A stretch of DNA of 51,526 bases from Candidatus Woesearchaeota archaeon (GCA_964408125.1 CAYOYC010000001.1:1-51526), one strand, 5' to 3'. Positions 41,764-43,047 are shown, numbered from the stretch's first letter. Numbers and translations are program-made. Notes: generated by a model from the letters alone, not told the origin.

Positions 41764-41799
41764 ATAAACTTTTATAGTCTCTTTTCTAGAAATTTCTAG

Positions 41800-41827
41800 G
41801 CCCGTGTAGCTCAGCCTGGTTAGGGTA
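41800..41827 (+). other. orphan tRNA 5' fragment (acceptor 5' strand plus complete D arm) with its own TATA-like box upstream
   Basis: GCCCGTG-TA-GCTC-AGCCTGGTTA-GGGT-A; the D stem closes with two G:U pairs. A box (cttttatag, 41769-41777) is centred about 27 nt upstream. No anticodon or T arm follows, and no matching 3' acceptor strand occurs in the window. Confidence 0.6.
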
Positions 41828-41830
41828 AGG

Positions 41831-41839
41831 TTTAAATAT
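41831..41839 (+). promoter_or_regulatory. TATA box (aaggTTTAAATAT) 26 nt upstream of the LAGLIDADG ORF ATG
   Basis: Immediately abuts the tRNA fragment. Consensus box and leaderless spacing. Confidence 0.45.
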
Positions 41840-41859
41840 ATTAAAATCGTTTATTTTTT

Positions 41860-42864
41860 ATGAGATTACTCTTATCAAAAGATTCTAGAAAAAAGTTATT
41901 TGATCACCTACAAAAAATAAATAATTGTAACTCTCTCGAAGTATTATCTCGTAAATTGAAAATTCCATTAAAAACAATTGGGAATTGGAAATATGGGCAT
42001 GGATATATTCCTGAAGTGATACTTCCTATCGCTATCGAAAATAAAATAGAAATTTTAGATAAGCAAGAAGATAACTGGGGAAATATTAAGGGTGGCAAGA
42101 AAACTTATCAGATAATTTTAAAAAAATATGGGCAAGGGGAAATAGATAAAAGACGATCTCGGGGTGGAATGAATTCTATTAGAAAGATTAGAGTACAACA
42201 AAAACCCATATCTATAGATATTACTAATCCTCTTTTTTTAGAGTTTTATGGTATTTTGTTGGGCGATGGGTGGATGAGCAAGCTAGCTTATCGCGGAAAG
42301 ATAATAAATCTTATCGGCATTAGTGGAAATGCAAAAAAAGATAGGGAATTTTTTATTTATTTAAAGAAAAATATTAAAGAATTATTTAATAGGAACGCCT
42401 ATCTTAAGTATCGTCCAAAGTGCACTTCTATAGAGCTAAACTTTACGCATAAAGAGCTGTTAAAAAAAATACACGAGGAATTAAATTTCCCTATAGGCCA
42501 GAAGATTGACTTGAAAATTCATGATAATGTTTACAATTTGGGTTACGAAAAAATGAAGTACGTTATTAGGGGGATATTAGACACTGATGGTTGTGTGTAT
42601 TTTGATAAAACACCCGTTGGAAAACCTTATCCTTGTTTAAATATCACAATGAAAGCTCCAAAATTAATGAATCAGGTTTTTAATATGCTTATTAGTCAAG
42701 GATTCAAAGCAATGCTTCAAGATAGAAAGGGTCATGCTATGCAAATAATATTAAAGGGACGCAAACAATTAAATAAGTGGATGAAAGAAATAGGATCATC
42801 TAATTTCCGAAACTTAAGTAAATTTGCCCTCGTGGCGCAATTGGATAGCGCAAAAGCATCCTAA
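41860..42864 (+). mobile_element. LAGLIDADG (double-motif) homing endonuclease gene with N-terminal HTH-like domain
   Basis: Two dodecapeptide motifs (LEFYGILLGDGWM and VIRGILDTDGCVY) and an N-terminal SLEVLSRKLKIPLKTIGNWKYG helix-turn-helix-like segment. The last 13 codons are tRNA-Arg sequence. Confidence 0.8.
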
Positions 42865-42899
42865 GCTTTAGGTTGCAGGTTCAAGTCCTGCCGAGGGCG
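42826..42899 (+). tRNA. tRNA-Arg (anticodon CCU)
   Basis: Acceptor GCCCTCG/CGAGGGC, D arm GCGC-AATTGGATA-GCGC, anticodon stem AAAGC/GCTTT with loop ATCCTAA. T arm GCAGG-TTCAAGT-CCTGC, discriminator G. No convincing TATA box at -26. Confidence 0.88.
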
Positions 42900-42907
42900 T
42901 TCGGAAG

Positions 42908-42916
42908 GTTTAAAAA
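42908..42916 (+). promoter_or_regulatory. TATA box (gaaggTTTAAAAAgcc) about 26 nt upstream of 5S rRNA
   Basis: Consensus box; spacing to the first paired nucleotide of 5S helix I. Confidence 0.45.
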
Positions 42917-42937
42917 GCCAAAATCAATAGAAATTTT

Positions 42938-43047
42938 GAGACGGCCATAGTCGGTTGGTTCCACCTGTTCCCATTCCGAACACAGAAGTTAAGCTTCCGA
43001 CGTTTATGTGTGTACTGCTTTCACGCGGGAAAACATAAAGCTGTCTT
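42938..43047 (+). rRNA. rrf: 5S ribosomal RNA (ends approximate, within about 3 nt)
   Basis: CGGCCATAG..., CCCATTCCGAACACAGAAGTTAAGC, GTACTG...GGGAAAA. The termini GAGACGGC/GCTGTCTT pair as helix I. A T5 run follows at 43053-43057. Confidence 0.88.

Follow-up and report, generated by a model that had tools for sequence, protein, structure and literature searches.

An archaeal tRNA-Arg(CCU) gene apparently interrupted by a LAGLIDADG endonuclease gene that travels with its own tRNA-Arg(CCU)

Organization of the locus

The subject of this study is a cassette of ∼1.07 kb, comprising a TATA box, an open reading frame (ORF) for a LAGLIDADG endonuclease and a complete, divergent gene for a transfer RNA (tRNA), tRNA-Arg(CCU), which lies in a 51,526-nucleotide stretch of DNA from a Candidatus Woesearchaeota archaeon (GCA_964408125.1 CAYOYC010000001.1:1-51526). 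This whole stretch is referred to below as the window, and coordinates are counted from its first letter; homologous loci in other genomes are given L numbers. The cassette is inserted at position 26/27 of a native tRNA-Arg(CCU) gene, i.e. where the D arm meets the anticodon arm, and all of the features described in this section are on the plus strand. Upstream of the insertion, the TATA box of the former native gene (P1; TTTTATAG, 41770–41777) lies at −30 to −23 from an orphan tRNA stump (41800–41827), which corresponds to positions 1–26 of the disrupted gene when aligned to the native genes of L082, L086 and L088. The left end of the cassette (41828–41859) follows at once, with a purine-rich stretch, a second TATA box (P2; TTTAAATA, 41831–41838, at −29 to −22 from the ATG at 41860) and a short spacer to the ATG. 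The ORF itself (41860–42864; 334 aa), assigned from the ORF call, its motifs and a fold model, runs into the inner, cassette-borne tRNA-Arg(CCU) (42826–42899; detected by ARAGORN and, at 66 bits, by Rfam), such that its last 12 codons and its stop codon constitute nucleotides 1–39 of the tRNA (42826–42864). Beyond the tRNA, the right junction (TTCGGAAGG, 42900–42908), which is the same in L084 and L096, leads into flanking host DNA with the promoter box (42909–42916) of the 5S ribosomal RNA (rRNA) gene and the 5S gene itself (42937–43049; Rfam, 70.7 bits). This flank (42909–43049) is 98% identical to that of L084 and is a probable right-hand homology arm. On the opposite side, a conserved small ORF of 66 aa in host DNA (41563–41763, from the ORF list) provides a left-side marker of both occupied and empty alleles; homologous small ORFs are found directly upstream of the native tRNA-Arg in L082, L083, L084 and L086.

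Much of this arrangement had been recognized in a first-pass annotation made from the sequence of the window: a TATA-like box ahead of the tRNA fragment, the TATA box of the ORF straight after it, an ORF that reads in frame through nucleotides 1–39 of tRNA-Arg(CCU) to a TAA at 42862–42864, and a downstream 5S rRNA gene with its own box were all borne out. The further remark that tRNA-Arg, unlike the other RNA genes of the window, has no convincing TATA box at −26 agrees with our box survey, which found a box of the type cTTTAAAAa at about −33 to −23 in all of the others and none upstream of the inner tRNA. The tRNA 5′ part at 41800–41827 had also been described as perfect; it is present, but two G-U pairs close its D stem.

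The stump reads GCCCGTG-TA-GCTC-AGCCTGGTTA-GGGT-A, representing the 5′ strand of the acceptor stem, U8 and A9, the D arm, and A26. A 24-mer from it is unique in the window at up to three mismatches (0 matches being expected from shuffles), and it is not called as a tRNA by ARAGORN or Rfam, even at E ≤ 10. That the stump is no chance match follows from its alignment with nucleotides 1–26 of the uninterrupted tRNA-Arg(CCU) that relatives have at this locus. The P1-to-stump spacing agrees with the box spacing of the other RNA genes in the window. The left junction is fixed: the stump starts 58–61 nt before the ATG in ∼30 relatives, and in ∼30 loci a TTTAAATA-type box stands straight after the stump, with a second TATA box before it at about −32.

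The endonuclease

By its motifs and predicted fold, the ORF product is a monomeric double-motif LAGLIDADG endonuclease. The two motifs are YGILLGDGW (LLGDGW) and IRGILDTDGC (ILDTDGC), and D136 and D243 are invariant in 24 homologs. The LAGLIDADG identity proposed in the first-pass annotation holds up in a hidden Markov model search, where Pfam LAGLIDADG_3 and LAGLIDADG_2 were matched, albeit weakly (20.3 and 19.2 bits) and under the curated cut-offs, and the fold search is concordant with it. Residues 1–125 form a helical N-terminal domain, a conserved addition, and residues ∼126–321 the double-motif core; the AlphaFold2 model (mean predicted local distance difference test score, pLDDT, of 87.5) has the tandem αββαββα topology predicted for such a core. 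All 50 of the matches listed by Foldseek against the PDB are LAGLIDADG enzymes, among them PI-PfuI (E = 2e-10), the bI3 maturase, I-AniI, I-Tsp061I and I-DmoI, and the closest archaeal structural neighbours are of the I-DmoI/I-Tsp061I type, with TM-scores normalised to the target of 0.75–0.76.

The ORF is full-length in 32 of 34 loci. Its mRNA is probably leaderless, because the distance from P2 to the ATG equals the box-to-start distance of other genes. No paralog of the ORF was found in the window and no integrase in the cassette, which holds only the LAGLIDADG ORF and the tRNA. Neither a group I or group II intron nor any other Rfam family was detected over the insert, at the Rfam gathering score or at E ≤ 10 over 41300–43300. 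Searches of viral contigs returned partial matches at 25–27% only, with no close relative and no sign of a viral vector.

Empty and occupied alleles

Close relatives of the window were found through SecF. In L082, whose SecF is 88% identical to that of the window, the small ORF is followed by the same TATA box, an intact native tRNA-Arg(CCU) and the 5S gene; the order is as in L082 in L086 (SecF 76%), and L088 (SecF 72%) has the same P1 box and the native tRNA, with rearranged flanks and the 5S gene upstream on the other strand. None of these three empty alleles contains an endonuclease ORF, and their native gene reads GCCCGGGTAGCTCAGCCTGGATTTAGAGTAGGGGCATCCTAAGCCC...CCCGGGCG, with a GCCCGGG...CCCGGGC acceptor stem. 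Occupied alleles are found in L084 (SecF 86%), L031 (SecF 72%) and L096, the ORF of which is 85% identical to that of the window. When empty and occupied alleles are aligned, homology extends through tRNA position 26, at which point the occupied alleles switch to the TTTAAATA box. Occupancy is patchy even among the closest relatives, since the window and L084 (both occupied) and L082 (empty) have mutual SecF identities of 86–88%. Comparison of the syntenic locus in relatives lacking the endonuclease, which had been envisaged in the first-pass annotation, came down to L082, L086 and L088, each with an intact native tRNA-Arg(CCU). Such a presence/absence polymorphism at a precise site, 26/27, with an intact target in the empty alleles, is the pattern by which a homing element is recognized. 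The empty state is taken to be ancestral, because a window-type allele, from which the native 3′ part has gone, cannot revert to a native gene.

The stump and the native gene are ∼85% identical, with ∼4–5 of 31 aligned positions differing from L082 (counted by eye), and the first 26 nt of the inner tRNA differ from the L082 gene far more than the stump does (also by eye); the stump and the 5′ part of the inner tRNA are divergent and not identical. The P1 region, AATAAACTTTTATAGT, is identical in the occupied window, L084 and L031, and is one or two bases different in the empty L082 and L086. Next to the junction, the native AGAGTA corresponds to a shared AGGG(T/A)A in the occupied alleles; this sharing would fit short co-conversion at a break.

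The inner tRNA and its overlap with the ORF

The TAA of the ORF (42862–42864) coincides with U36-A37-A38 of the inner tRNA, i.e. with anticodon position 36 and positions 37–38. Of 34 loci, 27 have the stop codon of the ORF within the inner tRNA, and the frame is the same in 23; across loci the codon may be a TAA at U36-A37-A38, a TAG in the D loop, or a TAG at U8-A9-G10. The C-terminal tails ALVAQLDSAxAS and ALVAQPG, which are conserved in the homologs, are the translated 5′ half of the tRNA.

Among the 40 closest loci, about 33 have Arg(CCU) as the tRNA, and the inner acceptor stem pairs at 6 or 7 of 7 positions across 34 loci, with compensatory changes; to judge from these features, the inner tRNA is a functional copy. 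It has GCCCTCG/CGAGGGC in the acceptor stem and GCAGG/CCTGC in the T stem, where the native gene has GCCCGGG/CCCGGGC and GGGGG/CCTCC, respectively, and the D arms differ too, whereas the inner tRNAs of the window and L084 are 98.6% identical. Comparison of the alleles thus demonstrates that the inner tRNA is foreign to the locus and travels with the ORF. One of three explanations offered in the first-pass annotation, namely that the cassette destroyed a neighbouring tRNA gene and now uses tRNA-Arg as its 3′ end, needs to be amended accordingly: destruction by the cassette stands, but the victim was no neighbour, being the resident tRNA-Arg(CCU) that is still seen in L082, L086 and L088, and the complete tRNA-Arg is no mere resident 3′ end, as it differs from the native gene and moves with the ORF.

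The same annotation had asked how tRNA-Arg obtains its mature 5′ end from a transcript that also serves as the endonuclease mRNA. The puzzle is a real one: lacking a promoter of its own, the inner tRNA has to be excised from RNA whose synthesis begins ahead of the ORF. Two candidate features were considered and rejected. The first was a promoter within the 3′ end of the ORF, where the conserved RNLNK codons can spell AATTTAAA; this would lie ∼13 nt from the start of the tRNA, which is too close, and it is absent in the window. The second was a processing helix, TTCCGAA (42805–42811) with TTCGGAA (42900–42906), that would enclose the tRNA; its upstream arm is absent in L084 and L096, and it is probably due to chance.

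Small introns occur in the downstream tRNA-Arg(CCU) of L041 (2939–4117) and L058 (2940–4097), which has two of them, in the D loop and the anticodon loop. Run with the -i option on these two loci, ARAGORN wrongly joins the stump to the tRNA as a 'tRNA-Leu, 1094-nt intron'. The intron-aware run on the window gave no intron-containing tRNA across the ORF.

The native 3′ part in relatives and in the window

To locate outer 3′ parts, the complement of every stump was sought within the same locus, and a native tRNA-Arg 3′ part, comprising all or part of the anticodon arm, the T arm and the 3′ strand of the acceptor stem, was found straight after the inner tRNA in L005, L006, L013, L014, L015, L024 and L037. 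These seven Arg(CCU) outer 3′ parts each pair with their own stump at 7 of 7 positions. Additionally, the outer 3′ remnant of L071, an Arg(GCG) locus, pairs with its stump at all seven positions (two of them G-U), and L097 has a more decayed outer 3′ part. By comparison, the mean pairing of a stump with the 3′ parts of other loci is 5.55/7, and with its own inner tRNA 5.43/7. The general architecture is therefore that of an outer tRNA-Arg(CCU) interrupted at ∼26/27 by a TATA box, an ORF and an inner tRNA.

These figures bear on the second explanation of the first-pass annotation, in which the stump is the 5′ exon of a tRNA with an intron of about 1 kb and is spliced to the 3′ half of tRNA-Arg. 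This finds no support: there is no co-variation between the two (the mean of 5.4/7 noted above), and the partner with which the stump pairs fully (7/7) in relatives is another 3′ part, the outer one. A variant of the idea deserves more consideration, in which a giant bulge-helix-bulge (BHB) intron, containing the ORF and the nested tRNA, is spliced out to yield the outer tRNA-Arg(CCU), the stump again being the 5′ exon. The perfect pairing of the outer 5′ and 3′ parts in relatives, despite sequences that differ between loci, is what such an intron would require; the outer gene of L005 has intact D and anticodon arms and, by eye, AAAU/AUUU complementarity at the junction; and DPANN tRNAs at these loci do carry non-canonical introns. 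Yet the differing outer sequences are equally explained by independent insertions into native genes that had already diverged, decay or partial deletion has affected the outer anticodon arms of L013, L014, L015 and L037, and the stumps diverge about neutrally (see below). Even in L005, the minimum free energy structure computed by RNAfold for a mini-precursor has its outer T loop disrupted by an insertion consisting of a hairpin array. For the window itself, this explanation is excluded by the want of a 3′ exon in the 51.5 kb, and overall we regard it as highly improbable. Given mutations or partial deletions in several of the anticodon arms and hairpin insertions in some T loops, the outer genes are interpreted as relics.

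The T-loop insertions are of some note in themselves. They are seen in the outer 3′ parts of L005 (4078–4255), L037 (∼4100–4150) and L097, measure 50–180 nt and consist of tandem short hairpins; they may represent either a small repeat element in its own right or non-canonical introns belonging to the native gene.

In the window, the native 3′ part (positions 27–76) is missing together with a spacer of ∼12–15 nt, and nine nucleotides separate the inner tRNA from the start of the 5S promoter; the spacer ahead of the 5S gene is longer in the empty alleles than in the window, L084 and L096. A blastn-short search of the 51.5-kb window found no native 3′ part anywhere, the only similarities being a generic one of the T arm to tRNA-Leu and one to the anticodon loop of the inner tRNA, and the sole other match in the window to a 3′ half ending in CACGGGC lies inside a coding region and has no T arm.

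The third explanation of the first-pass annotation was that the stump is the 5′ piece of a split tRNA, to be joined in trans to a 3′ piece from another place in the genome, in the style of Nanoarchaeum equitans or Caldivirga. The stump does retain a correctly spaced promoter, examples of a 25/26 split exist among tri-split tRNAs, and our search for a partner covered the 51.5-kb window of the genome. However, close relatives have a continuous native gene at the same site, and the matching 3′ part, in those relatives that possess one, is in cis after the inner tRNA and decaying. Furthermore, the stump is followed by the TATA box of the ORF, not by a GC-rich complementary splint, and four of the seven positions of its acceptor strand have changed between the window and L084 with no partner to match, although the cassettes are 83% identical. 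Given this near-neutral drift and the lack of a 3′ half in the window, the split-tRNA explanation is not supported, and we consider it extremely improbable.

Selection and age of the cassette

Rates of nonsynonymous (dN) and synonymous (dS) substitution, and the proportion of synonymous differences (pS), were calculated for a single pair, the window and L084. For the LAGLIDADG ORF, dN is 0.10, dS 0.86 and pS 0.51, and the resulting dN/dS of ∼0.12 demonstrates that the coding sequence is under purifying selection. The flanking secF, macB-like and rpoN genes have dN values of 0.083–0.096 and pS values of 0.71–0.80, with dS at 2.27 for secF, 2.26 for rpoN and saturation for the macB-like gene. 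The cassette copies appear, therefore, to be younger than the split of their hosts.

Purifying selection would also be expected if the ORF and the tRNA were a domesticated, vertically inherited pair that no longer moves, the protein having a role in the host, such as the binding of DNA or RNA in connection with tRNA-Arg expression, and the stump being kept merely for lying between two needed promoters. Besides the low dN/dS, the 32 of 34 ORFs that are full length and the conservation of the N-terminal domain speak for such a pair, as do the recurrence of the tRNA-Leu/tRNA-Arg/tRNA-Gly neighbourhood in many loci and the presence of the bI3 maturase and the bifunctional I-AniI among the structural neighbours. 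Immobility is, however, difficult to reconcile with the coexistence of empty and occupied alleles among relatives with SecF identities of 86–88%, with a cassette dS far below that of the host genes, or with paralogous cassettes at many different tRNAs. Moreover, both catalytic aspartates are invariant, and the degenerate copies (L035, L038 and the frameshifted ORF in L084) are as the homing cycle predicts. We therefore judge domestication to be unlikely.

The stump is evolving differently from the ORF. Between the window and L084, the stumps are ∼74% identical and differ at four of seven acceptor positions, and the rate of change appears to be about neutral. In L027, L029, L032 and L033, the stump is heavily degraded or unrecognisable, whereas the ORFs are intact. 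Such decay, together with the ∼74% identity, tells against a function for the stump, be it as a tRNA-like 5′ untranslated region or small RNA that is transcribed from P1 and modulates expression, or as a half-site for autoregulation by the endonuclease; additionally, a conserved pairing partner was looked for and none was found. In favour of a function, P1 and the UAGCUCAGCCUGG core of the stump are better conserved than the adjoining spacers in many loci, and AGGG(T/A)A is common to the occupied alleles, as against AGAGTA in the native gene. On balance, a functional stump seems very unlikely to us.

A replacement-carrying homing element

We consider it roughly 75% probable that the cassette is a homing element that invades an intronless tRNA gene by carrying a replacement copy. 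We are highly confident in the structural and evolutionary account and moderately so in the homing mechanism. As regards cleavage specificity, the homing pathway, transcription and RNA processing, we infer the following course of events from the comparisons above. A host tRNA-Arg(CCU) would once have started at 41800, driven by the box at 41770, and would have been split between positions 26 and 27. The endonuclease would cut uninterrupted native tRNA-Arg(CCU) genes near 26/27, and repair of the break from an occupied allele would copy both the ORF and the inner tRNA across, the latter rescuing the disrupted function; as the inner tRNA would replace what has been destroyed, no self-splicing intron or intein would be needed. 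Differences from the native gene in the D arm and anticodon stem would presumably protect the inner tRNA itself from cleavage. The native 5′ 26 nt would then persist as a slowly decaying stump between two conserved promoters, and in the lineage of the window, the native 3′ part would have been lost, as far as the 5S promoter, through either the right-hand crossover (by conversion in homing) or a later deletion. Finally, transcription of the inner tRNA would proceed through the ORF, starting at P2 and probably at P1 too, and the tRNA would thereafter be released, presumably by RNase P. Since the stop codon of the ORF lies in the tRNA, maturation of the tRNA and full-length translation would exclude each other for any one transcript.

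Several observations weigh against this interpretation. In some loci, L004 among them, the D arms of the inner and outer tRNAs differ by one base, which weakens the basis for immunity to cleavage, and the founding insertion, with a whole tRNA, is not explained by the model. The long retention of P1 and D-arm sequence in many lineages could mean that the stump has a function after all. Moreover, the low dS of the ORF could partly reflect codon usage, or saturation in the host genes, and the synteny of tRNA-Leu, tRNA-Arg and tRNA-Gly in many relatives is compatible with much vertical inheritance.

Breadth of the family

The protein search returned 316 homologs, and 113 loci were collected from GTDB species representatives. 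Homologs at 25–35% identity, from DPANN archaea and some bacteria of the candidate phyla radiation (CPR), likewise have a tRNA on the same strand at once downstream, and the other tRNAs that are abutted in this way comprise Ala(GGC, CGC, UGC), Thr(GGU), Ile(GAU), His, Lys, Arg(GCG) and Ser(CGA). At Ala (L047, L049, L051 and L054), Thr (L057 and L061) and Arg(GCG) (L071) loci, a cognate 5′ stump is present and has a box of its own upstream. The same design appears to recur across many DPANN archaea and at several other tRNAs.

Three further sets of loci may be described here. In L059, L064, L067, L073 and L075, which are from metagenome-assembled genomes (MAGs) of CPR/Patescibacteria and MAGs labelled Gammaproteobacteria, a 25–30% homolog is directly upstream of tRNA-Ser(CGA) and there is no detectable 5′ stump. 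In L077, a tRNA-His (3604–3675) follows a distant homolog, and a second, complete tRNA-His (3903–3975) is found 230 nt further on; the two could be a cassette copy beside an intact native copy. Lastly, L084 (3539–4441), L086 (3784–4439) and L087 (433–1088) contain a second, shorter LAGLIDADG_3 ORF of 162–194 aa, frameshifted in L084, which ends exactly at the first base of tRNA-Gly(UCC), next to secF; it is preceded by a homolog of the promoter of the tRNA-Trp that the window and L082 have at this place, and no tRNA stump is visible.

Other features of the window

The window is AT-rich archaeal DNA (GC ∼33%), in which the neighbouring genes include secF/secD, rpoN and ribosomal protein genes, and homologs bear the names Pacearchaeota, Woesearchaeota and Nanoarchaeota. 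On the minus strand, the tRNA-Trp(CCA) gene (41251–41350) has a 26-nt intron after position 37 and its own cTTTAAAAc box at −33. It is missed by default ARAGORN and at the Rfam gathering score; ARAGORN with the -i option detects it and mislabels it as Phe(aaa). Between 29000 and 36000, the GC content is 25–29%, compared with ∼33% elsewhere. The matching contig has genes for glycosyltransferases, methyltransferases and polysaccharide synthesis in this interval, which may represent a variable surface-glycan island.

Relation to known systems and significance

By arrangement, the closest analogues appear to be the mORFs of fungal mitochondria and SegB of phage T4. In the mORFs, which are known as gene hybrids from atp6 of Allomyces macrogynus and from atp6, atp9, cox2 and nad3 of Glomus, a free-standing LAGLIDADG or GIY-YIG ORF lies in an essential gene with no intron or intein; it has brought with it a foreign, divergent C-terminal segment, the native segment being left as a nearby untranslated relic, and close relatives are more similar to the relic than to the inserted copy (PMC3630166). 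Our cassette resembles them in combining an inserted copy with a native relic that is nearer to the genes of relatives than is the inserted copy, and at least seven loci have outer 3′ relics. It differs in that it resides in an archaeal chromosome, has a tRNA as its target and carries a whole gene. Moreover, the relic with the promoter is here the 5′ end, whereas that of an mORF is the C-terminal end, and the ORF precedes the rescue copy, which supplies it with a stop codon and has no promoters but those before the ORF.

SegB is described as a free-standing endonuclease gene among the tRNA genes of phage T4 whose product cuts the corresponding region of relatives lacking it, with preferential inheritance, by co-conversion, of its own gene and the adjacent tRNA genes (PMC2330249). 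SegF and mobE are further free-standing endonucleases of 'intronless homing' (PMC2790892). The likeness to SegB lies in a free-standing endonuclease gene beside a tRNA gene. SegB, however, is a GIY-YIG enzyme of a phage, is intergenic, and involves no split target, stump or tRNA overlap; here, a LAGLIDADG enzyme of a DPANN cell is inserted within the target gene.

Three archaeal systems offer partial parallels. I-DmoI, I-Tsp061I and I-PorI are encoded in BHB introns of rRNA genes, and splicing keeps the host gene functional. The cassette shares with them the double-motif monomer fold and a conserved stable-RNA gene as its target; it differs in that no splicing is indicated, function being restored by the carried copy, and in the extra N-terminal domain of ∼125 aa. 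The integrases of archaeal viruses and plasmids insert at tRNA genes, leaving a partial duplicate at one end, with an intact tRNA reconstituted by the element. Our element likewise is inserted in a tRNA gene, leaves a partial duplicate and supplies an intact tRNA; in contrast, it has no integrase and no identical att repeats, is only ∼1 kb in size and has a divergent duplicate, and its mobility would be via double-strand-break repair. The split and permuted tRNA genes of Nanoarchaeum and Caldivirga include a promoter-bearing 5′ piece that ends near 25/26; unlike these, the stump has no splint and no conserved partner, decays neutrally and corresponds to a continuous gene in relatives. Searches of open-access papers for LAGLIDADG and tRNA in DPANN, Pacearchaeota or Woesearchaeota, and for split or partial tRNAs, did not find the arrangement described.

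For genome annotation, a promoter-bearing tRNA half with no partner is to be read as the possible footprint of a mobile element, and caution is warranted when split tRNAs or giant introns are called in DPANN genomes. The arrangement would also represent a third route, beside introns and inteins, by which a homing endonuclease can reside inside an essential gene, namely with a spare copy; it is feasible here because a tRNA gene is just ∼75 bp long, and it had previously been documented mainly for fungal mitochondrial protein genes. The family may, in addition, be a source of natural meganucleases, with predictable targets of ∼20 bp in tRNA genes. Were the model to be general, it would account for horizontal replacement of tRNA genes, for tRNA pseudogene fragments and for the expression of an essential tRNA becoming tied to that of a selfish gene.

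We are inclined, by a narrow balance, to go further and to see in these loci a large and previously undescribed class of elements in DPANN archaea, and perhaps in CPR bacteria, that invade intronless tRNA genes with a cleavage-resistant replacement tRNA, i.e. a natural 'cleave-and-rescue' drive. If so, the tRNA in such elements would be transcribed only through the endonuclease gene, to which it supplies the stop codon; the host would depend on the element for an essential tRNA, and repeated homing would drive the horizontal replacement of tRNA genes.

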